From: an uncultured Alphaproteobacteria bacterium
Lineage (GTDB): Bacteria; Pseudomonadota; Alphaproteobacteria; RF32; CAG-239
Assembly: GCA_944391425.1 (NCBI GenBank)
Contig: CALXTO010000001.1
Coordinates: 11,066-75,065 of the forward strand
DNA length: 64,000 nucleotides
Direction of reading: 5' to 3'
Both the position numbers and the translations under genes were made by a program. Under the pieces are notes generated by a model. It saw nothing but the letters and a program-made list of their open reading frames with translations. It was not told the DNA's origin and ran no database searches. This document shows, in pieces, positions 1,894 through 49,791 of this stretch. The stretch's first letter is position 1; every line of letters begins with the position of its first letter.

Positions 1894-1969
1894 GGGCGCT
1901 TAGCTCAGCTGGAAGAGCATCTCGTTTACACCGAGAGGGTCGGGAGTTCGAACCTCTCAGCGCCCACCA
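1894..1969 (+). tRNA. tRNA-Val (anticodon TAC)
   Basis: Hand-folded cloverleaf. Acceptor GGGCGCT/AGCGCCC, D stem GCTC/GAGC, anticodon stem TCTCG/CGAGA with loop TTTACAC, T arm GGGAG-TTCGAAC-CTCTC, encoded ACCA. Confidence 0.95.
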
Positions 1970-2188
1970 ATTAAACCGCCTTTAAGGCGGTTTTTTTATA
2001 TGTGGAAAAGGTTCGAACTCCCTCGGGAGTTCTTCTGGCTCGTAAGCGTTGCTATCGATACGCAACGCTAACTCGCTGCGGTCACTCGATTTGTAACGTT
2101 TTCTCAGTTATGCCGGGATATTTCGAAAACGAACAAATCTTCGCCTGTCGTTAAACCACTCTCCACTGGAGAGTGATTTGGCCTCCAG
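1953..2188 (+). repeat. tandem repeat unit 1 (236 bp)
   Basis: The unit runs from the last 17 nt of tRNA-Val through the terminator and the conserved tRNA-flanking element. Sequence from 1953 onward recurs from 2189 onward (offset 236). Confidence 0.9.
1973..1997 (+). terminator. Rho-independent terminator after tRNA-Val (repeated at 2209-2233)
   Basis: ACCGCC / GGCGGT stem with TTTAA loop and a run of 7 T. An identical second copy lies 236 nt downstream as part of the tandem repeat. Confidence 0.7.
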
Positions 2189-2348
2189 CCTCTCAGCGCC
2201 CACCAATTAAACCGCCTTTAAGGCGGTTTTTTTATATGTGGAAAAGGTTCGAACTCCCTCGGGAGTTCTTCTGGCTCGTAAGCGTTGCTGTCGATACGCA
2301 ACGCTAACTCGCTGCGGTCACTCGATTTGTAACGTTTTCTCGGTTGTG
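2189..2348 (+). repeat. tandem repeat unit 2 (truncated, 160 bp), starting with a partial tRNA-Val 3' end
   Basis: CCTCTCAGCGCCCACCA (2189-2205) equals tRNA positions 1953-1969. The copy matches unit 1 with 3 mismatches (2290, 2342, 2346). It diverges after 2348 and lacks the distal half of the element. Confidence 0.9.
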
Positions 2349-33284: not shown

Positions 33285-33977
33285 ATGCAAAACAGAGTTG
33301 AAGCAATCATAAATAAAATAAAGTCACAATATATTAAGTCGGATTTTTGCCTGCAGAGCAAATGTGTGCGCCAAAAATGGCAAAAAGCGATTAATAAGGC
33401 GGGAGAAAAATTCGCCAAAGCAGGTGTTTCGGCCAACGTCATTTCCGTCAGCGGTTTTATTATCGGCCTGCTGGCCATTAATTTTCTGGCAATGAATATG
33501 TATTTTTGGGCATTGGTCTGCATTTTGGCCAACAGATTTTTTGATGCTTTGGACGGCGCCGTTGCCAGAGCCGCAAAAAGCAGTGATTTCGGCGTATTTT
33601 TGGATGCTTGCCTGGATTATACCTTTTATGCCGGGGTTATTTTCGGGTTTGCGCTTGCCTCCCCTTATCAAAATGCGGTTGCGGCTGCTTTCTTGTTGTT
33701 TGCGTTTACGGCTTCGGCCTGCGCCATGTTGTCTTATTCGGTGATTGCTTATAAAAACCGCCCGTCCCAGAAGTTGGACCTGGATCAGTCTCCTTTTTAT
33801 CTCGGCGGTCTGGCTCAGGGATTCGAAACTTTGACGGCTTTGGTCATTTTATGTATTGTTCCGGGATGGTTCCTGCCGGTGGCCGTTATTTTGGGCTGTT
33901 GGTGCCTGGTGAAATTCCTGCTTGTGATTTCGACGGCTTATTATAATTTTGTGGTCGCAGCCAAGAGTAAACCGTAA
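33285..33977 (+). CDS. CDP-alcohol phosphatidyltransferase family protein
   Basis: DALDGAVARAAKSSDFGVFLDACLDY matches the DG(x2)AR...G(x3)D(x3)D signature. Multi-TM. The ATG at 33285 follows GAGGGA. Confidence 0.8.
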   Translation: MQNRVEAIINKIKSQYIKSDFCLQSKCVRQKWQKAINKAGEKFAKAGVSANVISVSGFIIGLLAINFLAMNMYFWALVCILANRFFDALDGAVARAAKSSDFGVFLDACLDYTFYAGVIFGFALASPYQNAVAAAFLLFAFTASACAMLSYSVIAYKNRPSQKLDLDQSPFYLGGLAQGFETLTALVILCIVPGWFLPVAVILGCWCLVKFLLVISTAYYNFVVAAKSKP

Positions 33978-35578
33978 TGCAGAAAATCAAGGCTGTCTTT
34001 TATATTGTCTGGGGAATCGTTTTATCTGCTCCCGTTTTGGCACAGGAGACAGAAAACCGTTTTGACAACGATAAAGTCAGCCTTCGGCTTTTTTCCAATT
34101 TTGAACAGGTAAATCCTCTGCAAAATCTGGAAATATTTTTGCGTTTTAAAATGCATGACGGCTGGCATATCTTTTCACAGGAACCGGGAGAAGCTGGCAT
34201 GCCGACCCAGGTCAAGTGGTCTTTGCCCCAAGGCTACCGTCAGCTTGAAGAAAGCTGGAGTAGAGATGAAACTTTTGAAACGGAAGGAATTGTTCAGCAT
34301 GGGTACGGTGATACGGCTTATTACAAAGCAACCATCCGTCCTGATGCGGCTTCTGCTGCTGTCGGCGGCGAAGCCATGTTGACGGCTGATGTCCGCTGGC
34401 TGGCGTGCCGGGAAGAATGCGTTCCGGAAAAGGCGCGCCTGAGGTTGAAGTTACCCATAACGTATCGGGATCTGTTGCCCGGAAAAGAGTGGCAGAATGT
34501 TGCGGCGGCGGCTCAGGAATGGTTTCATCCCCGGGCGGAAAAAGAAGAATTCGGTTTGTGGTTGGTTTTGTTGATGGCTTTTGCCGGTGGAATCGTTTTG
34601 AATTTTATGCCGTGCATTTTTCCGATTTTGGCAATCAAAGCCATTTCTTTATCACAGACGTCTTACAGCAAATATAAAAGCCGAATGGAATCTTTGTTTT
34701 ACACGTTGGGCGTGATTGTTTCTTTTTTAATTATGGCGGCAATATTGTACGCCTTGCGGAGCCAGGGCGAATATCTGGGCTGGGGATTTCAGTTGCAGTC
34801 TCCCGTGTTTGTGGGAATCATGATTGTTGTTTTTGCGGTTATTGCCCTGATGTTTTTGGATATTGTCGTTATCAATAATCCTTTTGCCGATAAGTTGGGA
34901 CGGATGTCTTTTCAAAATCATTTGCTCAGTTCTTTTATGACAGGTTTTTTGGCTGTTTTGATTGCCAGCCCCTGCACGGCTCCCTTTATGGGGGTTGCCG
35001 TCGGATATACGCTGAGCGCGCCGCCGCATATTTATTATCCGGTCTTCTTTGTTTTAGGGCTTGGATATGCTCTTCCCTTTGCATTGGCCGGACTTTTTCC
35101 GAAAATAATTGCCAAGATTCTGCCGCGACCGGGAAAATGGATGGTGATTTTGAAGAAAATATTTGCCATTCCCGTCCTTTTGACTTGTGTCTGGCTGGTA
35201 TGGGTGCTGTATAATCAGCTTATTCCGCGCAAGGCTCCGGATTTGTTGTGGAAAGAGTATGATGTCCGAGGGGTGGAACAGCTGCTGTCCCGCCATGAAC
35301 CCGTGTTTGTCGATTTTACGGCCAAATGGTGCATCACCTGTCTGATTAACCGGGAAACAGCCCTGCAATCAAAAGAATTTGAGAAATTAGTTGATGAGCA
35401 CGGCATACACCTGTTTCGGGCGGATTGGACAAACAACAGCGAAAATATTGCCAGAGCCCTGGCTTCTTATGGGCGCAACAGTATTCCGCTTTATGTGTAT
35501 TATGACGGAAAATCGGATGATTATTTAATTTTACCGCAGTTGCTTACGCCTGGTATTCTGAGAGAATATTTAAAATAA
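33977..35578 (+). CDS. dsbD: thiol:disulfide interchange protein DsbD-like
   Basis: 533 aa. Periplasmic N-domain, central DsbD TM domain (two conserved Cys in TM helices) and a C-terminal thioredoxin fold with WCITC. Confidence 0.85.
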   Translation: MQKIKAVFYIVWGIVLSAPVLAQETENRFDNDKVSLRLFSNFEQVNPLQNLEIFLRFKMHDGWHIFSQEPGEAGMPTQVKWSLPQGYRQLEESWSRDETFETEGIVQHGYGDTAYYKATIRPDAASAAVGGEAMLTADVRWLACREECVPEKARLRLKLPITYRDLLPGKEWQNVAAAAQEWFHPRAEKEEFGLWLVLLMAFAGGIVLNFMPCIFPILAIKAISLSQTSYSKYKSRMESLFYTLGVIVSFLIMAAILYALRSQGEYLGWGFQLQSPVFVGIMIVVFAVIALMFLDIVVINNPFADKLGRMSFQNHLLSSFMTGFLAVLIASPCTAPFMGVAVGYTLSAPPHIYYPVFFVLGLGYALPFALAGLFPKIIAKILPRPGKWMVILKKIFAIPVLLTCVWLVWVLYNQLIPRKAPDLLWKEYDVRGVEQLLSRHEPVFVDFTAKWCITCLINRETALQSKEFEKLVDEHGIHLFRADWTNNSENIARALASYGRNSIPLYVYYDGKSDDYLILPQLLTPGILREYLK

Positions 35579-35612
35579 AAAAAGCCTCCCCGGAGGGAGG
35601 CCTCAGTTTTTT
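35578..35612. terminator. bidirectional terminator
   Basis: GCCTCCC (35584-35590) / GGGAGGC (35595-35601) stem flanked by an A-run and a T-run, between convergent genes. Confidence 0.7.
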
Positions 35613-36387
35613 ATTTTCCGAAAATGCCAATGCTTTTGACTTTGTCTTTAACGCCGCCGACAACATTGTCCAAATTTTCTTTGGCAATGTTTTTAACGTC
35701 GTTTAATCCGCTTTTGACAACCGTCTGCGAAGCGGTGTTCAGAATCTTGGCAAAGATTTTGGAAATGGAGGCTGCAATACTTTCACCTTTTTTGTCTTGT
35801 CCGATATCTTTCAAGGTAATTTCAGGAAGCTTGACGTCCAGTGCTGCTGCCTTGCCTTCTAACGGTGTTTCGGCTTTGATTTCGCCGCCGGCGACAATAA
35901 CCTTTTTAATAATGACTTTTTTTGATGCTGCTTTTTGTTCCGCAGATTTTTTCGGCTCTGCCGCGGTTTTTTGTTCTTCTTTGACGGCAGAAGCTGTGTT
36001 TTTGGAAATATTTTCCTGAATCTGTTTGATGTTGTTTTGAGTCAAAGAGCGCATTTCATAGGTGATAACAGGCTTTTGGATATTTATTTCTTCAATAACA
36101 ATAGTATCCGTGGTCAGACTTTTAACGTCGACTTTAACGTTTATGCTGCCTAGATCAAACAAATAAGGACTTTTGTAATTTTTGGGATTGGCAACGGTCA
36201 ACCCGGAAACGGAAGCCGTCCCGTTTAACGGGGAAAACTGGAAACCGCCAAGCTTGACCTCCGTTCCTGTGATTTCGGAGCCATATTTGTTGACAACGGT
36301 TTTGACGATTGATTCTAAAGAAAGCCATACTGCGCCGACGGCAAGCAGAATAATGGCAACAAGGCTGATAAATATTTTCTTTTTCAT
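35611..36387 (-). CDS. membrane-anchored hypothetical protein (AsmA/DUF748-like?)
   Basis: Start set at the ATG at 36387, preceded by GGAGG (MKKKIFISLVAIILLAVGAV). One N-terminal TM, beta-rich body and a K/E/A-rich linker. The family assignment is tentative. Confidence 0.6.
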   Translation of the reverse strand: MKKKIFISLVAIILLAVGAVWLSLESIVKTVVNKYGSEITGTEVKLGGFQFSPLNGTASVSGLTVANPKNYKSPYLFDLGSINVKVDVKSLTTDTIVIEEINIQKPVITYEMRSLTQNNIKQIQENISKNTASAVKEEQKTAAEPKKSAEQKAASKKVIIKKVIVAGGEIKAETPLEGKAAALDVKLPEITLKDIGQDKKGESIAASISKIFAKILNTASQTVVKSGLNDVKNIAKENLDNVVGGVKDKVKSIGIFGK

Positions 36388-36483
36388 GTAATCCTCCTTC
36401 AGTTGATGATGCGGTAATTGTAAATCTTTCTTGATGTTTGGCAAGAAAAATATTTTTTGATGAAAAAAAGTTCAAAAAATTGT

Positions 36484-36512
36484 TGCAAAAATTTTTTAGT
36501 CGGTTTATATTC
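36484..36512 (+). promoter_or_regulatory. putative sigma70 promoter of tRNA-Lys
   Basis: TTGCAA (36484-36489), 17-nt spacer, TATATT (36507-36512). The tRNA starts at 36531. Confidence 0.5.
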
Positions 36513-36530
36513 CCGCTGTATTCGCTGATG

Positions 36531-36606
36531 GGTGCGTAGCTCAGTTGGTAGAGCAACTGACTCTTAATCAGTGGGTCTGGGGTTCGAACCCCCACGCGCC
36601 TACCAG
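36531..36606 (+). tRNA. tRNA-Lys (anticodon CTT)
   Basis: Hand-folded. Acceptor GGGTGCG/CGCGCCT, D stem GCTC/GAGC, anticodon stem ACTGA/TCAGT with loop CTCTTAA, T arm TGGGG-TTCGAAC-CCCCA, encoded ACCA. Confidence 0.95.
36591..36606 (+). repeat. direct repeat, left copy (last 16 nt of tRNA-Lys)
   Basis: CCCCACGCGCCTACCA recurs exactly at 36828-36843 (offset 237). Confidence 0.9.
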
Positions 36607-36615
36607 TTTATTGGA

Positions 36616-36652
36616 AAACCGGAATTTAAGCAATTCCGGTTTTTGTTTTTTA
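36616..36652 (+). terminator. Rho-independent terminator directly after intact tRNA-Lys
   Basis: CCGGAATT (36620-36627) / AATTCCGG (36633-36640) stem followed by TTTTTGTTTTTT. Confidence 0.7.
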
Positions 36653-36827
36653 TGGGGCGTGGATGGTTCTCACGTTCTTGCTCGTAGGCTCTGCTGCTGC
36701 AATCGCCAACTCGCTTCGGTCACTCAGTTTGTAACGTTTGCGGCGTCGGTAACCATCGACTGGCAAACGAACAAACTTTCGCCTGTCGTCAGAAAAAGCT
36801 TCACCGGAGCTTTTTCTTTCCTCCAGC
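36653..36827 (+). other. conserved structured tRNA-flanking element, copy B (candidate ncRNA or miniature integrative element)
   Basis: Collinear with 1998-2188 downstream of tRNA-Val. Shared blocks: GTTCTT..GCTCGTA; a 32-nt block 29/32 identical; a 25-nt block 23/25 identical; CCTCCAGCC. Inter-block distances are identical (57 and 55 nt). Two helices are supported by compensatory changes. No conserved ORF. Confidence 0.6.
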
Positions 36828-36843
36828 CCCACGCGCCTACCAT
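36828..36843 (+). repeat. direct repeat, right copy (partial tRNA-Lys 3' end, T-stem 3' strand to CCA)
   Basis: Exact 16-nt copy of 36591-36606, preceded by CCTCCAG instead of the T loop. It is not part of a foldable tRNA. Confidence 0.9.
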
Positions 36844-36845
36844 TA

Positions 36846-36873
36846 AAAAGCCTGCTTTTTTTGCAGGCTTTTA
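36846..36873. terminator. hairpin terminator after the partial tRNA-Lys copy
   Basis: AAAGCCTGC (36848-36856) / GCAGGCTTT (36864-36872) stem with a T7 loop. It also abuts the stop of the minus-strand GT2 gene. It is probably the ancestral tRNA-Lys terminator and acts bidirectionally. Confidence 0.6.
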
Positions 36874-37806
36874 TTTTGCTTTGAATGTGAATGTTTTATT
36901 GAATAGCTCCAATGTATATGTTTTGCTGCCCAGCAATTTAGTGCGGGATAAGCTGATGAAGTTTTTTATTTTGAAATAGTTTTTTGTTTTTTTCATGTGT
37001 TTGAGGATTTTTGCTTTATCACTGCTATGGCTAAGTTCATACATTAGAGTCTGCTTTTGCATTTGTTTCATCTTGTTCTTTTGATGAATAGTGTTGTTGC
37101 CGTGGATGCGATATGCAAACAGTATTTTGTCTAGATACTTGAATTTGCCGATTTTTGATAATTGCAGCATCATATAAAGGTCTTCCAACGGTGCTTCCGT
37201 TCTAAACACGAAGCGGTCAAGCGCCGTTTTGCGGATGCAGTAGCCGTTGGGAATGTAATTTCCCTTTAACAGAGAATAATAATCGCCAAAGTTTTTTCCG
37301 TTGAAATCAACGTCACGGCGGTGTTTTTTCCAGTATGAAGACACCGTTTTGTGTTCCGCTCCGTGATAAGGATGCAAATGCTGTCTGGCATCCCAGCCGG
37401 CAATTTTAGAAGCGGCGTCAATAATTTGATTGTCGCCGACAACTAAAACGTAATCTGGATTTTGTTCCAGAAAACCAACTTCTTCGGAGATGGCTTCCGG
37501 TTTGGCGATATCATCCGAAGCAATCATATAAATATATTTTCCCTCGGATTTTGCCAAAAGACGATTGATTGTCGTGCATAGCCCGGCGTTGGGCTGAGTT
37601 TCAAAGCTGAACTTTTGAAAACGTCGACAGCATAGCGGTTCCAGTTCTCTTATTTTTTGTGCAGTGCAATCGGAAGAGCCGTCATCTATAATGATCAGTT
37701 CTATATTATCATAAGTTTGATTTATAATAGAAAGTATCGTTTCGGCAACATATTTTTCGTGGTTATATGCTGCAATGATAACGGACACCAAACTATTTGT
37801 AGGCAT
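36871..37806 (-). CDS. family 2 glycosyltransferase
   Basis: 311 aa. [40 protein letters not shown] is a classic GT2 N-terminus with a DDG motif. Confidence 0.88.
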
Positions 37807-38881
37807 TTACAATGTCCACCAGCTGTTGTATTTCCGTATCGGTCATAACCGGGCTTATCGGCAGTGATATAATTTCACTGTGAATTTTTTCGCTGATTGG
37901 GTAGCTGCGGGTGTTCCATTCAGTATAAGCAGGTTGTTTATGCGGCGGAGTTGGATAATGAATAAGCGTTTGTACGCCGTTATCCGTAAGATATTTTTGA
38001 AAGCGTTCCCTTTCCGGCGTCCTGACGGCAAATACATGCCAAACATGTGCTTTTTCATCATAAGTCTGCGGCAGGGTTATCAGCGGGTTTTTGATATTTT
38101 GACGATAATATTCGGAAATTTGCCGGCGTTTTTGATTGTCGGCATCCAGATATTTTAATTTAACATCCAAAACTGCAGCCTGAATTTCATCCAGGCGAGA
38201 ATTTACACCTTTATAGAGGTTATGGTATTTTACATCTGAACCATAATTTGCCAGAGCTTTGATTTTGTTGTACAATTCTTCATCATTGGTTGTTACGGCA
38301 CCGCCATCGCCCAAACAACCGAGGTTTTTGCCCGGATAGAAAGAAAATCCCGCGGCATCGCTTAAATTTCCGGTCCGGCGTCCCCGGTATTCCGCGCCGT
38401 GTCCCTGTGCGGCATCTTCAATAACTTTTAATTTATATTTTTGAGCCAGTTGCCAGATTTTTTCCATCTGTACGGCTTGTCCGTAAAGGTGGACAACCAT
38501 AATAGCTTTGGTTCGGGGTGTAATTTTCTCTTCAATCAAGTCGGGATTAATGTTGTAAGTATTGATGTCCGGTTCGACAAGCACCGGAGTGGCGCCGTTT
38601 TGAGAAATGGCCAGGATGCTGGCAATGTAAGTGTTGGAAGGAACAATGATTTCGTCCCCTGCCCCAAATCCGTAAGCGCGGATAATCAGCGTAAGCGCAT
38701 CAAGGCCGTTGGCAACGCCCCATGCATGTTTTACACCGCAGTAATCGGCAAAATTTTGCGCAAATTTTTTGTTTTCATCTCCCTGCAGATACCATCCCTT
38801 ATCAAGGATTGTTTTGATCCGAGTGTCTATTTCTACACGAAAACGGTTGTTTATTTTTTCCAAATCTAAAAATTTAATCAT
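37793..38881 (-). CDS. DegT/DnrJ/EryC1/StrS-family sugar aminotransferase
   Basis: 362 aa. PLP-dependent sugar aminotransferase layout with the [10 protein letters not shown] lysine motif. Confidence 0.88.
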
Positions 38882-38913
38882 TTTATACTGCCTTTCATAT
38901 CTAAAATTTCTAT

Positions 38914-40311
38914 CTATTTTTCATTAAATAGGGTGTCTAAAATTTCTTTTTCTTTACTTAAAGAATGATCCATCCGATTAAGTGTGTACAATGCGCCGGA
39001 GAAATGAAACCATGTTTTATTATTTTGAGGGTCTATTTTATCCTGTGTAAACGAAAAGCCGTAACAATCTGATTTTTGAAAATCCGCTTTTATTTTCCTA
39101 GTCCAATAAACCATGGAAAATCCACTGGTAGGAATGTGTATTTTTTCCAACATTTCCTTTCTCAGCAAATAAGGATAGCTGAGTATTTTTCCTCCGTTTT
39201 GAAGAAAATTGTATAAATCATCCCATAATGTCGGGTTATGTGGAATGGTGGTTGCCCAATCGTAAATATCGGTTGCGATGACAATCGCTTTTAAATTATC
39301 TTTATTATGCAGGGGTATTGGGAAAAATATCCAGTCAACCCAGATATCTGTTTTTGTTCCTAAATCTTCTGCATATTTTCCGGTGTTATCATAATCGTTG
39401 AAACGGATGACAATATCATGTCCGTCAATTTCTTTTCCTGTCTTTTTTCCGTTTTGTTGCGGACCATTGCCGATGATAGCCACAGTCTTATTTTGGATCA
39501 GTTTTTCATAGGTGTTGGCATTTTCATTTATTTTCAATGCGTTGTATATTGCATTTGCTTTAAAAAATATATCATCTTTATATCCTAAGTCATATGCAAA
39601 AGATGATAACAACAAATGCTTTTTTATATTTTCCATGCCAAAGTTTTTTTCGTAATAGTGAAAAATCTTTTCAGCTAAAGAATATTGTTCTTTATATAGG
39701 CAGAGGTTAAAATATCTGCCCCAAAACCAAATTCCATAATTGTTAAAAATATCATTATCAATTTCCTCTTTGACGACTTTCAGCCAATCATTTTCAAAAT
39801 CATGTGCCGCCAATAAAGCGTTCAATAATTTTATTTTGCTCGCGAAAGTATCAATATCTTTATTGATAAAATCAGCGTAAATTTGAGCATATTGAGATGA
39901 AGTTATTCCTCCGGTTACTTTATACAACTCATCTATTATATGAGATAATTCAGTTGAAAAAATTTCTTTTAAATGACCACACTGAGGTGTTTGAAAAAAA
40001 GAACGTTCCAGCGCATTACCAAAGAGAGAATTTGTTCTTAGAAAGTCATGCTCAGGAAGCATCTGTTTTATAATATCAGGAAAAAGTTCTTTCAGAATAA
40101 GGATGTTTTTTATATCTGCAATTTGAGAGTTGACAGTGTTGGCAAAGTTATCCAGTTTGTTATTTAAAATATGATTACTCTCTTGGATATCCACTTTGGC
40201 AGATTCCGTGGATAACCCTTTGGCAACTATTTGTTTTTGCAAATGTTTCCAAATTTTGTATTTATAATATGTCAAAAATGATACTTTTTTACCTCGTATT
40301 TTTTTAGTCAT
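38914..40311 (-). CDS. two-domain protein: N-terminal helical region plus C-terminal GT29-like (eukaryote-type) sialyltransferase domain
   Basis: aa 277-325 [46 protein letters not shown] aligns with sialyl motif L (human ST6Gal1 ...[30 protein letters not shown], from memory). aa 393-419 PTSGFSM...CYGF resembles motif S. aa 449-454 HSLSKE fits motif VS (H-x4-E). Confidence 0.65.
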
Positions 40312-40328
40312 TTATAAATTCCTTGCAT

Positions 40329-41414
40329 TTATTTTTTAGATTGCTTGTTCTTTTGGAGCTTTCCCTTTAAATAATTGGTAATTGGTCGCTCAATACATAT
40401 GGCTGCACCCCCCCCCACAACAATACAAAAAGTTGTAAAAAGAAGTAACAGATGGACATCGTTTTTTATCAGATTTGTTTCTAAGATATATTTGCGTAAA
40501 ACAGCAATACAGGGAAAATGCATAACGTAAATTGCATAGGAAAAGCTGCCTAAAACACCAAAAATTTTATGGTTAAACAACTGGGAAAAGAATCCTTTAT
40601 TTTGAAGAAATAAAAATAAAAGAATGATGAATAGCAGCTGATAATATATTTCTTCTGAAAATTTGGGGTTATGCCAAGCAACTGATTTAATAAAATATAA
40701 AAAGATAAAAATTTCGGTGACAGATATAAGTATTTTTTTCCCCAGCCATGTTTTTTCATTATCTAAAGAAAAGGAGCTATAAATAATAGCACACAGTATT
40801 CCCAAGCTCATACCGCCAAGTGCCTCAATCATTCCTACTGTAAGTCGCAGGGATGGAAGAGCTATTGCGCCATATCCTTTTCCATTGGGAGAGTAAGTCA
40901 AAATGATAAAGCAAAAAAATGAAAAAAAGGCACAGATGTTTATTATTTTTTGTCTGCTATTTTGTTTAATTAAACAATAGAAAAAAATACTTGTAAAAAA
41001 CAAAACACAAATAAACCATGTTGCCGGATTATTGGAACCGCCTTTTACAATTCCCGTTCCAGCGCTGATAAAGAAGATGTTGAGGGTGTCTAAATATTTA
41101 TTGTAAGTTCCCAGAAAAATGAAAGGTACAAAAGAGATTGCCATGAGCGGCCACAATCGAATAACTTTTTGCAAAATAAAGTCGGAAAGCTTTTCTGGCT
41201 TAGAGATATTGGTTATATATAAAAAAAAGCCACTTAAAATAAAGAAAGCGTAAACGATATTCGGACCAATAAGTCCACCTTTTACAGCTAAATTTTGTAG
41301 AAAAGAAGTGTTATGAAAATTATTTAAAACTCCAACTACATGATAATACATAATCATTATTGCAAACATAAATCTTAAAAAATCTATGTTATATAATCTT
41401 TTTGTTGGGGACAT
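40329..41414 (-). CDS. acyltransferase family 3 (membrane O-acyltransferase)
   Basis: 361 aa, about 10 TM. The N-terminal IDFLRFMFAIMIMYYH motif is typical of Acyl_transf_3. Confidence 0.85.
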   Translation of the reverse strand: MSPTKRLYNIDFLRFMFAIMIMYYHVVGVLNNFHNTSFLQNLAVKGGLIGPNIVYAFFILSGFFLYITNISKPEKLSDFILQKVIRLWPLMAISFVPFIFLGTYNKYLDTLNIFFISAGTGIVKGGSNNPATWFICVLFFTSIFFYCLIKQNSRQKIINICAFFSFFCFIILTYSPNGKGYGAIALPSLRLTVGMIEALGGMSLGILCAIIYSSFSLDNEKTWLGKKILISVTEIFIFLYFIKSVAWHNPKFSEEIYYQLLFIILLFLFLQNKGFFSQLFNHKIFGVLGSFSYAIYVMHFPCIAVLRKYILETNLIKNDVHLLLLFTTFCIVVGGGAAICIERPITNYLKGKLQKNKQSKK

Positions 41415-41439
41415 AGCGTAAACTCCTTTATAATAATTT

Positions 41440-42801
41440 TTATTTTTTTTCTTTTTGAGTTGCCCGTATTGTCAATAAGGAAAAAAACTTATACGTTTTT
41501 TTATTTTTATATGTTTTGATTTTTAAAAACGGTAAAAAAGAAAATAGATAAAACCTCTTTGCTTTTCTTTTTTTCTTTATCTTTAACAGAGGCAGACCGC
41601 AAAATTTATATTTATAAACCAAGTTTAGTGAAGATGTTGAATTTAAGATATCACAATTTTCAAGTGAATTTTTTATTTTTTGTATTTGAAGAAAATTATA
41701 AACACTTGAATATTGTAAGCTGCTCTTGGACATCTGTTTTTTAAAACAGGAAGCGACATATGCTGGGGAGTGTTTTTTCTTTATGTAGGAAAAACACGCG
41801 GAGCCATATTTTTCTTTGTATCCTTTATTATAAATATTGTTAATTATTGTTTTGAAATTCATTGTTTTTAATTTTAATTCTTTTTGCTGATTGGGATAAA
41901 AACCCAGTACCATATCTGTTGTTTCGGATAACAATGTAAAGGTATCCGAATCAAAGCTTTTCATTTCAGAAGGAATTATAAAAGATGGTAATTTTAATGC
42001 GGCTCCTTCCAATACGGATGTTCCCATGGCAAACAGTGCATCGACTTGTGAAGACAGATAAGTGTTTAATTTATCGTCAGTTAAAATGCCGCACAATTTT
42101 ACGGATATATTTGATGCTGCGTTTTTATTTATTTGGTTAATTGAAATTCCGTCTCCAATTATATGTATGTTAATTTTCTTTTGAGGCCTATATTTGGCAG
42201 CTTGAGCAATGACGTTATTAATGGCATGCACTTTATCCGGGACAACTCTGCCTAAAATAGCTATGTTAATTTCGTTATTATTAATTATTTGAGTTGTTGC
42301 GGTTACTGTCTTTGGAGGTACAATCAACGAAACATAGTCATATCCAAAAGGGAGGCCCGTAATTGTGTTGTTCGTTAAACGATGAGAACCATCCACAAAA
42401 ACCTGAGCGTTATGGGCAAAGACTTCAGACATAAAGTACTTTAGTTCTACCTGAGAAAAATGCATTACTCTTTTTAATACAGGAAGGCATTCATTGTGCC
42501 AATTGTGAAATAAAATCTGTGAATTCGGATTTAACAAAGGAAGTTTATGTACTTCATATATTGGCATAAATATAAGGCATTCTTCCGTGAGAAGAAACTC
42601 GGAACAGTTGTCTTTATATTCTATAAATCTAACTTTTTGAGATTCCTTTATATCGGGAATAGTTCTTGAAAAACCGTCTTTATAATCGACGTAATAAACA
42701 TTATACTGTTTATCTTTAGCTAATTCATTTGCTAAACGAACCAACCAATACGGACCGCCTCCAATTTTTTTATCAGGGTAAAAAATACAAATATTTTTCA
42801 T
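41440..42801 (-). CDS. putative GT-B fold glycosyltransferase with a basic repeat C-terminal tail
   Basis: Start set at the ATG at 42801, preceded by AAGGTGGA (MKNICIFYPDKKIGGGP). ILGRVVPDKV...HIIGDG...GTSVLEGAALKLPSFII resembles GT4-type motifs. The tail has LPLLKIKKK / LPFLKIKTYKNKK repeats. Confidence 0.55.
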   Translation of the reverse strand: MKNICIFYPDKKIGGGPYWLVRLANELAKDKQYNVYYVDYKDGFSRTIPDIKESQKVRFIEYKDNCSEFLLTEECLIFMPIYEVHKLPLLNPNSQILFHNWHNECLPVLKRVMHFSQVELKYFMSEVFAHNAQVFVDGSHRLTNNTITGLPFGYDYVSLIVPPKTVTATTQIINNNEINIAILGRVVPDKVHAINNVIAQAAKYRPQKKINIHIIGDGISINQINKNAASNISVKLCGILTDDKLNTYLSSQVDALFAMGTSVLEGAALKLPSFIIPSEMKSFDSDTFTLLSETTDMVLGFYPNQQKELKLKTMNFKTIINNIYNKGYKEKYGSACFSYIKKKHSPAYVASCFKKQMSKSSLQYSSVYNFLQIQKIKNSLENCDILNSTSSLNLVYKYKFCGLPLLKIKKKRKAKRFYLFSFLPFLKIKTYKNKKTYKFFSLLTIRATQKEKK

Positions 42802-42814
42802 TTGTTCCACCTTT

Positions 42815-43987
42815 TTAGCTAAGTGCGATTTTTCTTGATAATTCTCGAATAAGATCATGTCCGTCCCAATAAGGGCCGATATCCATTGCTTTTCCTATAG
42901 GAACAATCCGATCTATGCCGCGGACATTATTATTGATAATAGCCTGCCGAAAATCTTTTTCAGAAAGACCATAATGAGTCACTGTCTGGAACTTCTCGGT
43001 GGTAACCGAAAATAACTCCTCCCAGGAACGAAGCGAGTGTTCATAAAAATAGCCGCCATTTCCTCGGTTTTTAATTATTTCCGGAGTTAATTTGTTTATT
43101 TCAATACGATATGCCAGGTTTTTAAACCTGTTTAGTTTTTGAAAGTTTGATAAATCGACAGCATCTATGCAGGCATGTGTGTATTTATCTACAACGACGG
43201 CATCCTGCAAATTATATTTGACAGATGCTTCTTTAATAACGGCATTCCAAAAGATTTCTCTTGCTCGCAATGAATCATTTTGCCATAAAATAATCTGCGG
43301 GGAAGAACAAGCATTTTGATCCATCAAGTAAGTATCATTATAAAAGTTTTCGGCTAACCTTTTGATGTTATCGGGGGTTGTTTCCAGAATTTTCTGTCCG
43401 TCAATTATACATACCGAATATCTGTCTGCAAAACTTATGTCTACGCATCGCGGCTGACAAGGCATGCTTTTTACCATTGCAATAGTTTTGTCGCCGCCCC
43501 AAATCATTCGCGCATCAGCCAAAGAACATAATTGTGCTGTAATATCGTTGTCACGAGGATATTTAATGAAAGCTGTTCGCTTTTCTATTTCTGGGTACCG
43601 AGGTAAAATTTCTTTTAACAGATTAGAGATGATGTCAATTTGCGGAAATTCTTTACTGGGTAACCGAACAATATTTGCATTTCCTGCCAACAGAGAAAAA
43701 AAGTAAGAAAAAGCAAAATTTATAGGGATATTTGATGGGGTGATATGGAAACATAATCCCCGCCCCATGCGGTCTTCTGTGTTTCCGAAGTCTGATTTTA
43801 ATTTTGTGATATTGGCTTTTCTAGCCCAAAAAGCCAGTGCAGATAAATCAGGATATGTTCTGACTATCGGAGATTTTAACAAATTCGCCGATATTTCTGA
43901 TAAAAATTCGCAGACATTCGTATCGTACGTTTGAAAGGCAGTTCTATTCAGTTCTGAATTACCAATTAAATATTTAACGTCGCTCAT
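42815..43987 (-). CDS. LuxC-like acyl-CoA/acyl-ACP reductase
   Basis: CFHITPSNIPINFAFS and the overall aldehyde-dehydrogenase-like LuxC family layout. The ATG at 43987 overlaps the LuxE-like stop (ATGAGCGACGTTAA), implying translational coupling. Confidence 0.7.
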   Translation of the reverse strand: MSDVKYLIGNSELNRTAFQTYDTNVCEFLSEISANLLKSPIVRTYPDLSALAFWARKANITKLKSDFGNTEDRMGRGLCFHITPSNIPINFAFSYFFSLLAGNANIVRLPSKEFPQIDIISNLLKEILPRYPEIEKRTAFIKYPRDNDITAQLCSLADARMIWGGDKTIAMVKSMPCQPRCVDISFADRYSVCIIDGQKILETTPDNIKRLAENFYNDTYLMDQNACSSPQIILWQNDSLRAREIFWNAVIKEASVKYNLQDAVVVDKYTHACIDAVDLSNFQKLNRFKNLAYRIEINKLTPEIIKNRGNGGYFYEHSLRSWEELFSVTTEKFQTVTHYGLSEKDFRQAIINNNVRGIDRIVPIGKAMDIGPYWDGHDLIRELSRKIALS

Positions 43988-45050
43988 AAGTATCACTACA
44001 CCCCCGTATTTCTGCATTTTTAATTCGCCCGTGTATTTTGAAATATTTCCCTTTTCTTCCGCAAGGACAATCATCAATCCCTAAGATTTCCCCTTCATCT
44101 TCTGTCAGAATGATATGTCCCGGATATGATGACGGTAGGACAGATAACAATTCAATTAGCCCTTTTTGTCCTATTGGGGCTTCTGAAAAATCATATGGAC
44201 ACCGAATGATAACATCTGAATAATTTGAACAATGCATATGGCCATGTTCACATTCAACAAAAACAGAGCCTAATTGTTCAGCCATTCCATAATAATTGTA
44301 AACTTTTACGTTTCCTAAACACTCTTGGACGTTACGATTATATGTTGCCGTATCAACAGCTTGGTCTTTAAGCTTCTTCCAGCCGCCGATATGAAATAAA
44401 ATTCCGTTTTTCAGGTTGAATTTTTTTCCTCTTTTTTTCAATTCCTGTATAACAAACTGCCAAATCATATAAGTATACCCGAACATGAGGATTGTTTCAT
44501 TTTGGTGTTTTTCCAAAAATTCTTCTATTTTTGAAATATTTATTTGCATATCAGCATCCAATGCATAGGTAATATCTTTACCAAAAATTGAAAAGCCTAT
44601 GATGCCGGCGCCGCGAGCTGAATACATTGAACGGTCTTTTTTTATCATTTCTGTATCAAGAAGCAAAAGAGGAAGTCTTTGTTTTCCAATAAAAGAAGAT
44701 ATTATTTCATTAAGCGTTTTTGTTTGATTATGCACGTTTTCGGCATCTAATAGAATTTTAGAAACGGCCTGCCCTGATGTTCCCGATGATGTTAACGTCT
44801 TAACGATTTTTTCTTGCGGAACACTTTTCAAAGTATATGTTTTAAATAGCCTGACAGGAATAAACGGTAATTCACTTACGTCTATCGAATGTGTGATGTC
44901 ATAATTCAGAGCATCAAGTATTTTTTTGTATTCTATACAATTCTTGTAGTGAAAATGCGTTAACCTGCTCAAAATTTCTTTTAAAATTTCATTTTTTTGT
45001 TGCTGATTTAAGCTATATGGTGGTATTGCAAACAGTTCTTCTAGTGTCAT
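43974..45050 (-). CDS. LuxE-like acyl-protein synthetase / adenylate-forming enzyme
   Basis: 358 aa. LTSSGTSGQ P-loop-like motif and the length and arrangement of the LuxE family. Confidence 0.7.
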   Translation of the reverse strand: MTLEELFAIPPYSLNQQQKNEILKEILSRLTHFHYKNCIEYKKILDALNYDITHSIDVSELPFIPVRLFKTYTLKSVPQEKIVKTLTSSGTSGQAVSKILLDAENVHNQTKTLNEIISSFIGKQRLPLLLLDTEMIKKDRSMYSARGAGIIGFSIFGKDITYALDADMQINISKIEEFLEKHQNETILMFGYTYMIWQFVIQELKKRGKKFNLKNGILFHIGGWKKLKDQAVDTATYNRNVQECLGNVKVYNYYGMAEQLGSVFVECEHGHMHCSNYSDVIIRCPYDFSEAPIGQKGLIELLSVLPSSYPGHIILTEDEGEILGIDDCPCGRKGKYFKIHGRIKNAEIRGCSDTYERR

Positions 45051-45718
45051 TTATGGATTACCTCTTTTAAAAAGATATCTTGCGGCGAGCTAAAATTTGC
45101 ACCTAAGAAGGCATATAAATTCATTACCGGTGTGTTCATTGAACTTATACGCCCCTCAATTTTCTTATATCCCTGATTTCTTGCCCAAAGGCATGCTTTT
45201 GCGTACAATCCGAGAGCTGCTCCGGTTGTACGATATTTTTCTTCCACGGCTGCTAAATTTATAAATGTGCTATCGGGAGAAGTTTCCTGTAATGCTAAGA
45301 AACCTATGATCTGATTCTTAAAACGACAGATTAACACTTCAGATAAATTATTAATCCATTCTCTTAAAACTAAAGCTGCTGTGTTGGAGTTGCAGTTCGG
45401 AGTTATGTGAAAGCGCCTATCATATTTAAAGTTGCGAATGGCAATTTCCAAAATCTCAGATTTGTATTCTGTACTAAATTCTATCGGAAGCCGTATCATC
45501 TTTTCTAAATCGGCTGAAATTCTGGATAAAAAGATCTCTGTTTTGATTGTCCTGTCAACCCAAACAAAACCTTGTTCCTGCAAAAGCTTAATTGTTGCCG
45601 GTTCAGAAGAAATTTGGAGCCTTATTACATCAAACATGGATATATCAGAAAGAACTGGTATTTCATTGGCAATATCCAGAAGCACTAAATTTTCATATTT
45701 TTTTATTTGTTGAGTCAT
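45047..45718 (-). CDS. GNAT-fold acyltransferase
   Basis: 223 aa. The C-terminal half has a GNAT core (VEEKYRTTGAALGLY...NTPVMNLYAFLG). 4-nt overlaps with both neighbours. Confidence 0.6.
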   Translation of the reverse strand: MTQQIKKYENLVLLDIANEIPVLSDISMFDVIRLQISSEPATIKLLQEQGFVWVDRTIKTEIFLSRISADLEKMIRLPIEFSTEYKSEILEIAIRNFKYDRRFHITPNCNSNTAALVLREWINNLSEVLICRFKNQIIGFLALQETSPDSTFINLAAVEEKYRTTGAALGLYAKACLWARNQGYKKIEGRISSMNTPVMNLYAFLGANFSSPQDIFLKEVIHK

Positions 45719-47118
45719 GCAGATTTATCCAATTCTTTGTATAGTGTTTTGCCTGCCTCATTTTTGGGAATTTGTTCAATGTATTTAACCGTAAAGGCAA
45801 CAAAATTTAAATTGCTTGTTTCCGCAACAAACTTTTGTACTTCTTTTATTTTTTGATTATCTGTGATATAGATACACATTGCATCATCTATCCCGGCACA
45901 TGCACAATCCAGTGTCTGGAAACGAGTTTTGATCAATCTCTCTGTTTCATCCAGATTAACTCTGTTTCCAAAAATTTTTAAAAATCTTTTTTTCCTGCCT
46001 ACAATATAAAAATATCCGTCCGCATCAAATTTTGCCATATCTCCGGTAACCAGGCGACCGTTAAATTCATCTTCTTTGCATAAATCATTTCCGTCTTCAG
46101 CGTATCCTAAAGCGACATTTTTACCTTGATATACCAATTCTCCTATAGTTTCAGGCTGGGTAATTGTTTTTCCCTCTGCATCAACTAATGAAAAAAGCCC
46201 CCCCGGAATAGCAATTCCCATAGATCCGATTTTTGCCAGAGATTGTTCCGGAGGTAGGTATCCCATTCTGGCTGTCGCTTCCGTTTGTCCATACATTACC
46301 ACAAAGTTTTTGTTGTTTTCTTTAGCATATTGCGCAAATTTCTCATGCAATTCAGGAGACAACTTCCCTCCCGCCTGTGTCAATGTCTGCAAACACGGGA
46401 GTTTACGTCTTTGAAAACGTAATTTGTCAAGCATTTCATAGGTATACGGTACTCCGGAAAGCGAGGTTACCTGATATTTTTCTATCAGTTCCCAAAATTC
46501 TCTTTGTATGATGGTGTAAGGACATAAGACGATACCTGCTCCCTGCATTAGATGACTATTAATAACGGATAGCCCAAATGTGTAGTTCATAGGCAGGGAA
46601 GTTATCGCCCTTTCTGCAGAGGTTATTTTTAAATAATCAATGATTGATTCTGTGTTATTGAGAATATTTTCATAACTTAATCTTACAAATTTGGGACTTC
46701 CCATTGAGCCTGAAGTTGTAAGTAACAGAGCCAGTTTGCCATATATTGGGTAATAATGGGGCCATGTTAATTCTATAAGAGAATATCCCCATTTATTAAA
46801 TATTTCTTTTCCGCTGATGTTCAAAGGAAGTTTTTTATTAGCCCAGAGGTAGCGGGGATGATACAAATTACAAAAATTACTCAGCAATTTGTGATCAATA
46901 TGTTCATCCAGCATTAAGGGAACATTATTATGCTCTATAGCCGATAAATAACCTACCAGAGAACCTAATGTATTGGAGCAAAGATTAAATATAAGGCTGT
47001 GAGGTTCAATATATCTGCTTAATTCCTGGCAGTATTCTGAAAGCTCTTGGTATGTTATTTCCTTACCATCAGGTTCAATGACAGCTATGCTCTGTTTAAA
47101 CTTATTAAAATTCCACAT
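45715..47118 (-). CDS. AMP-dependent synthetase/ligase (adenylation enzyme)
   Basis: LLTTSGSMGSPK (A3 core), YGQTEA (A5), GDMAKFDADGYFYIVGRKK (A7/A8). The ATG at 47118 overlaps the ACP stop. The track start at 47151 is a TTG inside the ACP gene. Confidence 0.85.
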   Translation of the reverse strand: MWNFNKFKQSIAVIEPDGKEITYQELSEYCQELSRYIEPHSLIFNLCSNTLGSLVGYLSAIEHNNVPLMLDEHIDHKLLSNFCNLYHPRYLWANKKLPLNISGKEIFNKWGYSLIELTWPHYYPIYGKLALLLTTSGSMGSPKFVRLSYENILNNTESIIDYLKITSAERAITSLPMNYTFGLSVINSHLMQGAGIVLCPYTIIQREFWELIEKYQVTSLSGVPYTYEMLDKLRFQRRKLPCLQTLTQAGGKLSPELHEKFAQYAKENNKNFVVMYGQTEATARMGYLPPEQSLAKIGSMGIAIPGGLFSLVDAEGKTITQPETIGELVYQGKNVALGYAEDGNDLCKEDEFNGRLVTGDMAKFDADGYFYIVGRKKRFLKIFGNRVNLDETERLIKTRFQTLDCACAGIDDAMCIYITDNQKIKEVQKFVAETSNLNFVAFTVKYIEQIPKNEAGKTLYKELDKSA

Positions 47119-47341
47119 TGTATTTAGCCAGAATTTCTTTTCCTTTTTCAAAAGAATTCAAATCAACGATATCGTCGGGCTCCATCATGATGTCAAAACT
47201 TTCTTCCAAAGCGGCAATTAATCCCATGTGTCCGACAGAATCCCAAGCGTCAATTCCTTGAAATTTTAAATTAATTGCTTGGTTTTCATCTATTTCGAAT
47301 GTATCCATAAATGCTTTTGTATATTTTTCCAAATTAGTCAT
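47105..47341 (-). CDS. acyl carrier protein
   Basis: 78 aa, acidic. GIDAWDSVGHMGLI contains the DS phosphopantetheine attachment motif at the expected position. Confidence 0.85.
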   Translation of the reverse strand: MTNLEKYTKAFMDTFEIDENQAINLKFQGIDAWDSVGHMGLIAALEESFDIMMEPDDIVDLNSFEKGKEILAKYNVEF

Positions 47342-47358
47342 TTTTTTCTCCTTATTGT

Positions 47359-48108
47359 TTAGTTTCTTCCGCCATCAACTCGAATGATTTGTCCCGTGAT
47401 ATATCGTGATGCATCTGAAGCCAGAAATACGGCTGCGTCAGCTATTTCTTCAGGCTTTCCAAGGCGATTGAGATATGTATTATTTTGATCTTTCTGCAAC
47501 ACATCCTCAGACATATCTTTGATAAGCGGTGTTTGAGTTATACCTGGGGCCAGACAGTTTGCCCTGATATTGTAATGTCCTAATTCTTTAGCTAAAGATT
47601 TGGTCATGGAATAAACTGCAGCTTTACTGGCTCCATATAATGTTTCTCCCTCAACGCCATCTAATGCAGCCATTGAAGACATATTGATTATGGACCCGCC
47701 CTGAGGCTGGCGGATCATTAATTTTGATACTAACTGTGTCAAATAAAATACCGCAAAAAAGTTTACTTCAAACAATTGCCTTGCCATATCCATGGAACTC
47801 ATTTGCAGTAAAGCTTCTTTTAATATTCCGGCATTGTTTATTAATACATCAACGGGACGTTTGTTGCTACGAATTTTCATAACCATATTTTTTACGGCAT
47901 CGTAATCCGTCAAGTTTACGGAGAATGTTTCTATTGTAACGCCATTGTTTTGTGAAATCTGTGAAACAAATTCTGCAAAATCGTCCGAAATATTTATATC
48001 ACAAGCCCAAATATTAGCTTTTTGTTCTGCAAAAGCTTTGACCATTGCTCTGCCCATGCCGCCACAACAGCCGGTGAGTAAAACATTTTTGTTTAACAAT
48101 CCAGACAT
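47359..48108 (-). CDS. short-chain dehydrogenase/reductase (FabG-like)
   Basis: 249 aa. TGCCGGMG cofactor motif, NNAG, and the S...YGASK catalytic triad. Confidence 0.88.
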   Translation of the reverse strand: MSGLLNKNVLLTGCCGGMGRAMVKAFAEQKANIWACDINISDDFAEFVSQISQNNGVTIETFSVNLTDYDAVKNMVMKIRSNKRPVDVLINNAGILKEALLQMSSMDMARQLFEVNFFAVFYLTQLVSKLMIRQPQGGSIINMSSMAALDGVEGETLYGASKAAVYSMTKSLAKELGHYNIRANCLAPGITQTPLIKDMSEDVLQKDQNNTYLNRLGKPEEIADAAVFLASDASRYITGQIIRVDGGRN

Positions 48109-48638
48109 TATTTACAAAACCTTTCTATATACTTTTTGTTTTTCTCATAGTTTTCTTTAGTGAGATTAAAATAAATAAGTTCGTTATCTTGGGCGGTTAT
48201 GGTACATCCCCACATTTTGAAATAATTAATCATATTAGAATTATTGTGACGTGTATCTGTCCGTATATTTTGCGTTCCGAGAACATTATAAGCGTAATTT
48301 TTTAACAGCATATCTCCCTCTATACCTTCTTGAATCCTAGAAGTTTGAGACATTACCCATCGTCCCGTACAAACACTGTCATCCTGAATATCATAGATAC
48401 TTAGGCATCCTAAAGGGAGGCCTTCTTTGTTTTCGACGATAAAATAGTATTCATCATCCAAGGTCTGATATCTTTTTATATATTCTATTTGCTTTTGAAG
48501 ATCCGGCGAAGTTTTATGAAGGAAACGAGCCCCTTTTCCCTCTGTTCTTAATTTTAAAATAAATGCAGCATCATCTGTCGTTACTTCACGCAAATTGACA
48601 TATTTTCCAATTAAAGCAGTTTGTTCAATTTTCTTCAT
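48108..48638 (-). CDS. GNAT N-acetyltransferase (RimJ/L-like)
   Basis: 176 aa, Acetyltransf_3-like. TAATG overlap with the SDR gene. Confidence 0.7.
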   Translation of the reverse strand: MKKIEQTALIGKYVNLREVTTDDAAFILKLRTEGKGARFLHKTSPDLQKQIEYIKRYQTLDDEYYFIVENKEGLPLGCLSIYDIQDDSVCTGRWVMSQTSRIQEGIEGDMLLKNYAYNVLGTQNIRTDTRHNNSNMINYFKMWGCTITAQDNELIYFNLTKENYEKNKKYIERFCK

Positions 48639-49712: not shown

Positions 49713-49791
49713 TTATCTCTCAAACTACAATGAATTTATTGATAAATTTATTATTTAGCAATTATCAAGTCAAGACAAAAATCAGTATGTT

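Follow-up and report, generated by a model that had tools for sequence, protein, structure and literature searches.

Islands and cis-mobilizable elements (CIMEs) at tRNA genes are recognized by insertion in the tRNA gene, tRNA-derived direct repeats, a copy that restores the gene, accretion in tandem, and decayed remnants. Integrative elements of the tyrosine-integrase type have att sites derived from an integrase-encoding element and core-type sites that resemble each other on the two sides of the crossover. In integrons, the R'' (RYYYAAC) and R' (GTTRRRY) boxes of the attC site pair at the base of a hairpin, and crossover takes place in R'. Insertion sequences (ISs) of the IS200/IS605 family are marked by a Y1 HUH transposase (TnpA) in the element or genome, by imperfect palindromes near both ends with a 5' guide complementary to the cleavage sites, and by the absence of target duplication; those of the IS110/IS1111 type have noncoding ends around the coding sequence of a DEDD (RuvC-like) recombinase, and two internal loops with left and right guides for target and donor. 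In IS608, the cleavage sites are read by base pairing with a short guide that precedes each subterminal hairpin on the 5' side; of these sites, the left one is in the flank and the right one at the 3' tip of the element, and engineered longer guides led to 12- to 17-nt targets (PMC5934647). Elements of the IS110/IS1111 type carry a structured noncoding part of 150 to 250 nt, the bridge (seek) RNA, whose target and donor pairing surrounds a shared core dinucleotide; IS110 bridge RNAs require two internal loops as well as a DEDD recombinase, and the strand with which they pair is the opposite one (PMC11208160). Here, we analyzed 64,000 nt of DNA from an uncultured Alphaproteobacteria bacterium (contig CALXTO010000001.1, positions 11,066 to 75,065; hereafter, the window), in which one copy of a structured noncoding element follows tRNA-Lys and one complete copy and one truncated copy follow tRNA-Val. 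The two window copies, along with the truncated one, are members of a family of small gene-less insertion cassettes found in the tRNA genes of a clade of uncultured gut Alphaproteobacteria.

Distribution and fold of the shared module

The tRNA genes of the window, as called by ARAGORN and Rfam, are two, Val(TAC) and Lys(CTT). A preliminary description, made from the sequence alone, had noted two collinear homologues beside these genes, and their shared blocks, distances, and helices are all present (29/32 identical positions in block 2 and 23/25 in block 3 between Val and Lys), as are the terminators that it placed around the element. Its Val coordinates are exact, but every Lys coordinate was 1 too high (corrected in Table 1). 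The tRNA-derived direct repeats that it reported measure 16 nt at Lys (36590-36605 and 36827-36842, spacing 237) and 165 nt at Val (1948-2112 and 2184-2348, 97% identity, spacing 236). The second Val repeat is, however, a truncated copy of the element (2269 to about 2348) and not only a tRNA fragment, and the Val repeat owes its length to this second, truncated copy of the whole unit coming after the first. The truncated module begins with block 1 and ends in the middle of the P2 apex, after which comes host DNA, and no displaced tRNA fragment is present there. The block patterns are unique to the Val and Lys sites in the 64-kb window, where no chance match is expected.

Scanning the block 2 pattern against one genome per species returned 28 loci (designated by L numbers below). 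Twenty-seven of them come from 18 metagenome-assembled genomes (MAGs) labeled as uncultured (gut) Alphaproteobacteria, obtained from deer, ruminant, and human samples; the remaining one, in Prochlorococcus, was rejected as a chance match. A covariance model built from 23 distinct copies retrieved only the known copies and their tandem partners, and later two more. A scan of Joint Genome Institute (JGI) metagenomes yielded a single genuine additional copy, and the phage collection a single match, GenBank MT837050.1 (L050), which is itself a family copy. Although filed as “UNVERIFIED: Bacteriophage sp.,” this record is a mislabeled bacterial chromosome fragment with genes for UDP-galactopyranose mutase, sugar epimerases, RadC, and a methionine aminopeptidase. 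The plasmid collection had no match to the module, and viral contigs had none to the block 2 and block 3 patterns. Metagenome contigs that encode the window's proteins show no difference from it at Lys but have another number of units at Val. The element of the preliminary description does have further homologues, the family amounting to about 30 homologous copies (18 MAGs plus L050) in both orientations at 11 tRNA genes (Lys-CTT, Lys-TTT, His, Val-TAC, Val-GAC, Val-CAC, Ala-GGC, Arg-ACG, Pro-GGG, Leu-TAA, and Pro-TGG). All copies except one pair lie within about 100 to 190 nt of a tRNA gene. One module copy, at L017 (521-676) and L042, lacks a detectable tRNA neighbor; its surroundings are AT rich and its flank reads CCCCATACTTTGACGATGAGCCC. 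Against Rfam 15, whose families include tRNA-like RNAs, ribozymes, omega/HEARO RNAs, group I/II introns, and attC-type motifs, only tRNAs scored in the window at the gathering threshold, and in E-value mode no family overlapped the module in L017, L021, L024, L026, L031, or L042; the earlier failure to recognize any known RNA family is thus upheld even at permissive thresholds. Literature searches found no published description of the cassette family, which, as far as these resources show, is undescribed.

The aligned modules (M), which extend over ~155 nt from TTCTGGCTCGTAAG to CCTCCAGCC, consist of nearly invariant blocks between which variable segments retain pairing. RNAalifold recovered the two helices already proposed, helix 1 (P2) and helix 2 (P3), and in addition a helix of 4 bp in which block 1 (CT[G/T]G) pairs with block 4 (C[C/A]AG), the two ends of M being mutually complementary. 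The proposed helices are the best-supported pairs across 28 distinct homologues, but the initial inventory had missed both a third hairpin, P1, and the target-derived hairpin at 2009-2032 (P0, described below). P1 spans GTAAG to CTAAC, and its anchor-adjacent pair is C-G, A-T, T-A, or G-C depending on the copy. P2 has an asymmetric internal loop (AA versus TAA), and P3 combines an A-rich/U-rich stem with a following run of T's. The blocks read GTAAG/CTAAC and TTTGTAAC/CTAACAAA, and the motif NTAAC/GTAAG is present in them four times.

Covariation was evaluated twice. With P1, P2, P3, and the block 3:block 4 helix set by hand, 88.8% of the cells were paired versus 72.2% in shuffles, double-change cells numbered 148 versus 45, and the covariation score was 0.409 versus 0.120; none of 500 shuffles scored as high, and slid partners reached at most 0.131. 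A model-based alignment of the 28 distinct copies gave 95.1% paired cells versus 79.8% when shuffled, 136 versus 38 double-change cells, and a score of 0.398 versus 0.118, which again none of 500 shuffles reached. The column pairs with the highest mutual information are helix partners, including the G/T of block 3 with the C/A of block 4; block 4 (C[C/A]AG) covaries with CCT[G/T] of block 3 as well as with CT[G/T]G of block 1. Five Watson-Crick combinations occur at the NN/N'N' pair, and 12/12 P3 pairs covary. L050 even carries compensatory changes in P2 pairs that are otherwise invariant (TTTGT/ACAAA to CTTGT/ACAAG and CGTTT/AAAC to CTTTT/AAAA). The claim of a conserved, covariation-supported structured element therefore stands, and the comparative alignments make a solid case for a conserved three-hairpin structure of M.

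Which strand folds is a separate matter. Thermodynamic folding was uninformative in this respect because both strands fold well, far better than shuffles (z of -3.9 and -4.9). Wobble pairs were strand neutral overall (17 G·T versus 19 A·C), while P2 has G·U pairs and no A·C pairs. The fold of M may act either as RNA or as single-stranded DNA. It is not a coding sequence: no open reading frame (ORF) fits in the unit, and no copy encloses a gene. A peptide reading of the interval from block 1 to block 2 was rejected on account of P1, whose length is not divisible by 3; the differences in P1 length between copies are not divisible by 3 either, consistent with the earlier statement that no reading frame is conserved. 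No recurrent ORF family was found next to copies at different tRNAs, only synteny groups specific to each tRNA site.

Modules group mainly by tRNA type across MAGs, with 84 to 98% identity between orthologues, while paralogous modules within one genome are 65 to 80% alike. Since the AsmA-like neighbor of tRNA-Lys shares only 46 to 60% identity between the same genomes, the cassettes are old residents whose blocks, about 100% conserved, and fold are under strong constraint. They are also mosaic: from block 2 to P3, copies from L024 (Arg), L026 (Ala), and L022 (Lys, in another MAG) are almost identical, and their P1 and P0 differ.

Cassette anatomy and the target-matched hairpin

Each unit is 231 to 265 nt long and is flanked by tRNA direct repeats of 14 to 232 nt. 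In co-oriented copies, the order is tRNA, terminator, P0, M, CC, and the repeated tRNA 3' end. One copy in three is antiparallel to the tRNA; in these copies (Val-GAC, Val-CAC, and Pro-GGG), the order is the same in the module orientation, but it is the 5' half of the tRNA that is repeated. The spacer of antiparallel copies, as read from their sequence, is the tRNA promoter region, with a -35-like hexamer inside P0. The repeat begins at CC in every case, and the location of this CC differs among copies, being the border of T loop and T stem, the variable loop, or the anticodon loop. Immediately left of M is a 5- to 10-nt direct copy of the target sequence preceding CC, minus 2 to 3 nt, and immediately right of it are CC and the remainder of the target, so that a partial duplicate of the tRNA gene encloses M. 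The tRNA remains intact because the cassette carries a restoring arm, i.e., a copy of the tRNA part beyond CC with its own terminator, or of the 5' half with the promoter region in antiparallel copies. M is therefore embedded in a tRNA gene duplicate, bounded by direct repeats, with the tRNA kept intact by an arm of the cassette. In the window, the last 17 nt of tRNA-Val (from CC at 1953-1954), which lie inside the direct repeat, are read as supplied by the cassette.

Only the repeat and P0 vary with the target; P1, P2, and P3 do not follow it. One strand of P0 is the direct copy just mentioned, and the other is the reverse complement of the 9 to 16 nt that end at, or 1 to 2 nt past, the CC of the intact gene. 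At Val, for instance, positions 2009-2022 are the exact reverse complement of tRNA positions 1942-1955 (the T arm up to and past CC), and 2023-2032 (TCGGGAGTTC) directly copy 1940-1949. The T-arm complementarity has decayed in the Lys copy, whose TTCTCAC variant is common to L022. P0 complementarity averages 10.7 nt with the copy's own tRNA versus 6.7 nt with other tRNA types, and where the T loop has the GAGCC variant (L018/L028 and the His copy), P0 changes with it. L050 has a mirror layout at tRNA-Pro(TGG): the disrupted copy keeps a long left arm with a terminator, the intact tRNA is to the right, and M is followed by CC and 10 nt of the right arm and then by a perfect inverted copy of that arm. 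The general rule is that, in the disrupted copy of the target, the shorter of the two arms is capped by an inverted copy of itself. A simple fold-back scar is an unlikely origin for P0 because the inverted strand includes the 2 to 3 nt and the CC that are missing from the adjacent direct copy. A giant T-loop insertion or tRNA mimic acting at the RNA level was also considered and was rejected because it fails for antiparallel copies. GC skew revealed no lagging-strand bias (positive for 16/27).

Several loci carry arrays or remnants. L019 has two 232-nt units, 100% identical, and a third cut after block 1; the window Val site, L021 (Ala), L029, and L020 each have one full unit and then a unit truncated at a different point. 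None of these five loci, all with a right-truncated last copy, has a displaced tRNA fragment beyond the array. At the orthologous tRNA-Arg site, L024 contains a full unit, while L021 retains only the terminator, P0, and TTCTGG, which lead directly into the same flanking host DNA. The copy in L026 has lost block 4 and the repeat, with P0 to P3 intact. In L022 (2833-3131), two modules are fused head to tail (TTTTTTCCTCC running directly into TCTTGCTCGTAAG) with no tRNA fragment, terminator, or P0 between them, which suggests that the 155-nt module can duplicate or recombine alone. Two contigs of the window's species (L006 and L007) have one unit at Val versus 1.7 in the window (1948-2348), a difference that may represent either strain polymorphism or an assembly artifact.

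A few further observations concern the borders and flanks. L008, a contig of the window's species, contains a 23-nt duplication of CTCTCAGCGCCCACCAATTAAAC at about 200-260, which may likewise be a strain polymorphism or an assembly artifact. Only three occurrences of the palindrome CAAGCTG-N4-CAGCTTG(AC) were found among all retrieved loci (L021 234-251 and 3401-3418; L024 179-196), each directly adjoining a cassette, truncated or not, at its right boundary. Within the arms of the palindrome are the motifs CCAG/CTGG and CAAG/CTTG, known from blocks 4 and 1, and in L024 it lies in a repeat of roughly 100 nt. Displaced fragments are mutated in L028, L039, and L041 and, for Val-GAC and Val-CAC, in the D-arm region. 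The displaced 5' fragments of L029, L032, L037, and L040 (Val-GAC) and L044 (Val-CAC) have in common the D-arm change TTAGAGC to NCAGTCGC (tRNA sense), which spans two tRNA species and several genomes and is nearly complementary to block 3. Descent from a common copy followed by retargeting could account for this, as could a change favored by selection.

Proposed mode of insertion and rival explanations

The anatomy is better accommodated by a folded recombination substrate, which the preliminary description had offered as an alternative, than by a small RNA (sRNA). We favor a non-autonomous cassette inserting site-specifically in tRNA genes, whose folded strand would be the substrate or guide of a trans-acting enzyme, and we hold this to be about evenly balanced between right and wrong. 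The unit would have entered, and would re-enter to form tandem arrays, via site-specific or Campbell-type recombination at CC, presumably as a circular or single-stranded form. Catalysis would be provided by an enzyme encoded elsewhere, for which the conserved fold of M may be the recognized substrate or scaffold, and P0 and the block 3/block 4 pairing might position the two cleavage sites by base pairing, with a logic like that of IS200/IS605 ends. A bolder version, in which a mobile cassette devoid of protein genes chooses its site by a reprogrammable target-derived hairpin and the 155-nt core scaffolds a guided recombinase or transposase or is itself catalytic, seems doubtful to us.

The ends of IS200/IS605 elements and of their gene-less derivatives, the palindrome-associated transposable elements (PATEs), appear to be the closest working analogy, albeit an incomplete one. 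As in these elements, the cassette is non-autonomous and strand asymmetric with hairpin-rich ends; the 5' strand of P0 pairs with a flank ending at CC, and block 3, located 5' of P3, pairs and covaries with the terminal CAGCC. Unlike in these elements, hairpins P0 and P3 are dissimilar and P0 changes with the target, the guide is 55 to 90 nt from the junction, conserved hairpins P1 and P2 and a gene-restoring target duplicate are added, and L050 exists as a mirror copy, with L034 also deviating. tblastn with the IS200 TnpA found no match in the window and all loci (about 0.35 Mb). The cassette resembles IS110/IS1111 elements by its CC core with target-matched and donor-matched segments, yet no DEDD recombinase gene is in or near any copy, three simple hairpins and a closing helix replace the two-loop layout, only P0 varies with the target, donor complementarity is only 3 to 5 nt, and the pairing with the opposite strand is absent. 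With islands and CIMEs at tRNA genes, it shares insertion in the gene, direct repeats, the restoring copy, tandem accretion, and decayed remnants, but it differs by its size (about 235 nt), the lack of genes, and covarying hairpins; moreover, a single family uses 11 tRNAs and three sublocations (T loop/stem, variable loop, and anticodon loop), and the part of the gene that it replaces can be 3' or 5'. The retention of structure while sequence varies, imperfect hairpins with asymmetric internal loops (P2), tandem arrays, and a folded strand that rebuilds a target-like duplex (P0) are reminiscent of integron attC sites and of attP(+) of the CTX phage. In contrast to attC, the cassette has no R'/R'' boxes, and its junction at CC is outside the conserved hairpins, at least 40 nt from P2; in contrast to both systems, the target is a tRNA gene and not attI or dif.

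Several points weigh against the reading that we favor. No recombinase or transposase linked to the family was found. tblastn with XerD over the window and all loci detected two integrases, in L030 and L039, which belong to ordinary islands with other sites and do not use the CC site. The one in L030 (1861-3240) is of the P4 type (Arm-DNA-bind_3, SAM_3, and Phage_integrase) and is accompanied by a resolvase; given that it adjoins a tRNA-Lys fragment starting in the anticodon loop, an ordinary island split the same tRNA-Lys upstream of the mini-cassette. L039 has a truncated integrase in a degenerate island downstream. A clean empty site was not recovered, and the search for an empty orthologous site with GNAT homologues gave non-syntenic loci without a tRNA. 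The difference between one and 1.7 units at Val may be an assembly collapse, and the identities reported above point to modules that have long been inherited vertically under purifying selection, not to recent movement. P0 could be the scar of a duplication event rather than a working guide, and both the mirror layout of L050 and the Pro(GGG) copy break a strict rule by which a guide 5' of the hairpin pairs with the left flank.

Alternatively, M may be a gene for an sRNA, a ribozyme, or a protein-binding RNA that serves the cell or the maintenance of the element, in which case the repeats would merely record the integration of its carrier and the single-stranded blocks would be a functional core or seeds. 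We consider this possible though, on balance, unlikely; it remains a serious rival because of the extreme conservation, the blocks being nearly invariant between genomes with much less similar neighbor proteins. Three covarying helices with nearly invariant junctions are the pattern of ribozymes, riboswitches, and ribonucleoprotein scaffolds, and the P3 stem followed by T's, the G·U pairs of P2, and the persistence of P0 to P3 in L026 despite its losses point in the same direction. On the other hand, an independent sRNA gene should have a promoter of its own, a terminator hairpin with a U tract, and a discrete transcript. No sigma-70-like promoter was found in front of the module, which in co-oriented copies is directly preceded by a strong terminator; the terminator scan of the window did not call P3, no antisense target of the conserved blocks was found within the window, and the wobble balance favors neither strand. 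An RNA gene also leaves unexplained why P0 matches the neighboring tRNA in the DNA sense in both orientations. The more specific form given in the preliminary description, an sRNA with an unpaired CCUCC as anti-Shine-Dalgarno seed and a tRNA-derived 3' end, is not supported. Besides the promoter and terminator results and the strand-neutral wobble counts, CCUCC is not a free seed since its CAG part covaries with blocks 1 and 3, and the trailing tRNA fragment is a decaying displaced piece of the gene, not a conserved 3' domain, which in the antiparallel third of the copies is the tRNA 5' half.

The unit could also be the minimal attP of a classical tyrosine-integrase element, i.e., a cis-mobilizable remnant without genes whose blocks are arm-type, IHF, or Xis sites. 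Its length of about 236 bp is close to the size of lambda attP, integration in tRNA genes with restoration of the gene is shared, the motif NTAAC/GTAAG is repeated in the blocks, and islands with P4-type integrases use the same tRNA genes in these MAGs. We nevertheless judge this quite improbable. Free compensatory variation, as seen at the NN/N'N' pair and throughout P3, is not expected of protein sites on duplex DNA, and the halves of P2 are not independent P and P' arms of a larger element because they co-evolve. The cassette sequence left of the core, CCTCCAG, does not resemble the left half of the target as it would in a C/B core site, the L030 integrase crosses over in the anticodon loop and not at CC, no copy encloses a gene, and no integrase-bearing relative was found among about 30 copies. 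A last proposal, which we regard as highly unlikely, takes the unit for a DNA copy derived from a retroelement or from a small replicon of the RNA-based or rolling-circle kind, with synthesis primed at a nicked tRNA gene on a circular template and yielding n.x-mer arrays. A precise left junction with last units truncated at variable points, the identical tandem units of L019, the absence of displaced fragments after the five arrays, and the compact, highly structured fold would agree with such an origin; ordinary deletions, however, explain the truncations equally well, no ribozyme family was detected with Rfam, no reverse transcriptase or Rep gene was seen nearby, and the unit holds an intrinsic terminator or antisense promoter.

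If P0 and the covarying end pairing do direct insertion, the cassette would be a very compact natural sequence-programmed DNA insertion system, distinct from CRISPR-associated transposons, IS110 bridge RNAs, and IS608, and could explain how one family colonizes many tRNA genes without damaging them. A conservative reading still adds a new, well-supported structured nucleic acid motif, a clear example of how 3' or 5' halves carried by a cassette, together with the terminators or promoters that it brings in, rebuild tRNA genes, and a marker for a poorly known clade of gut Alphaproteobacteria.

The window copies and their surroundings

The features of the Val and Lys sites are compiled in Table 1.

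Table 1. Positions of the tRNA genes and cassette features in the window
Feature	Position	Strand	Basis
tRNA-Val(TAC), intact	1894-1969	+	ARAGORN, Rfam, direct repeat
Val cassette 1, restoring arm: tRNA 3' end (CCTCTCAGCGCCCACCA), terminator hairpin (1973-1993), spacer	1953-2008	+	Repeat analysis, terminator scan
Val P0, target-derived hairpin	2009-2032	+	Inverted/direct repeat analysis, flank comparison
Val conserved module M	2033-2190	+	Covariance-model match, 145 bits
Val block 1, TTCTGGCTCGTAAG		+	
Val P1	2042-2072	+	
Val block 2	2070-2101	+	
Val P2 (helix 1)	2088-2139	+	
Val block 3	2127-2151	+	
Val P3 (helix 2)	2153-2179	+	
Val block 4, CCTCCAGCC	2182-2190	+	
Val cassette 2, right truncated	2189-2348	+	Repeats; 51-bit partial covariance-model match at 2269-2403; terminator scan
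Val cassette 2, CC and tRNA 3' fragment	2189-2205		
Val cassette 2, terminator	2209-2229		
Val cassette 2, P0 copy	2245-2268		
tRNA-Lys(CTT), intact; last 16 nt (36590-36605) are the left direct repeat	36530-36605	+	ARAGORN, Rfam
Lys cassette, restoring arm: tRNA 3' end and terminator (36614-36644)	36590-36652	+	
Lys P0, degenerate (GGGGCGTGGATGGTTCTCACG)	36653-36674	+	
Lys conserved module M	36675-36828	+	Covariance-model match, 145 bits
Lys block 2	36708-36739		
Lys block 3	36765-36789		
Lys P3	36791-36817		
Lys block 4, CCTCCAGCC	36820-36828		
Lys right direct repeat (displaced tRNA-Lys 3' fragment, 36827-36842) and second, different terminator (36846-36872)	36827-36872	+	

Directly after the Lys cassette begins a block of low GC content (30 to 37% versus about 45%; 36871-50000) with genes for glycan synthesis, namely, a GT2 glycosyltransferase, a DegT-type aminotransferase, a protein with a GT29-like sialyltransferase domain, and an acyltransferase-3. 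It looks like a variable surface polysaccharide island bounded by the tRNA. Glycan genes also adjoin the Pro(TGG) copy in L050. The cumulative GC skew of the window climbs to about 36 to 42 kb and then drops (about 36000-46000), which may correspond either to a replication-related switch or to an effect of the low-GC island and gene orientation. Finally, relative to the conserved DsbD/AsmA-like genes, the segment comprising tRNA-Lys and its cassette has in the window (33977-36830) the opposite orientation to that in L023 (2863-5754) and L022 (1921-3287).

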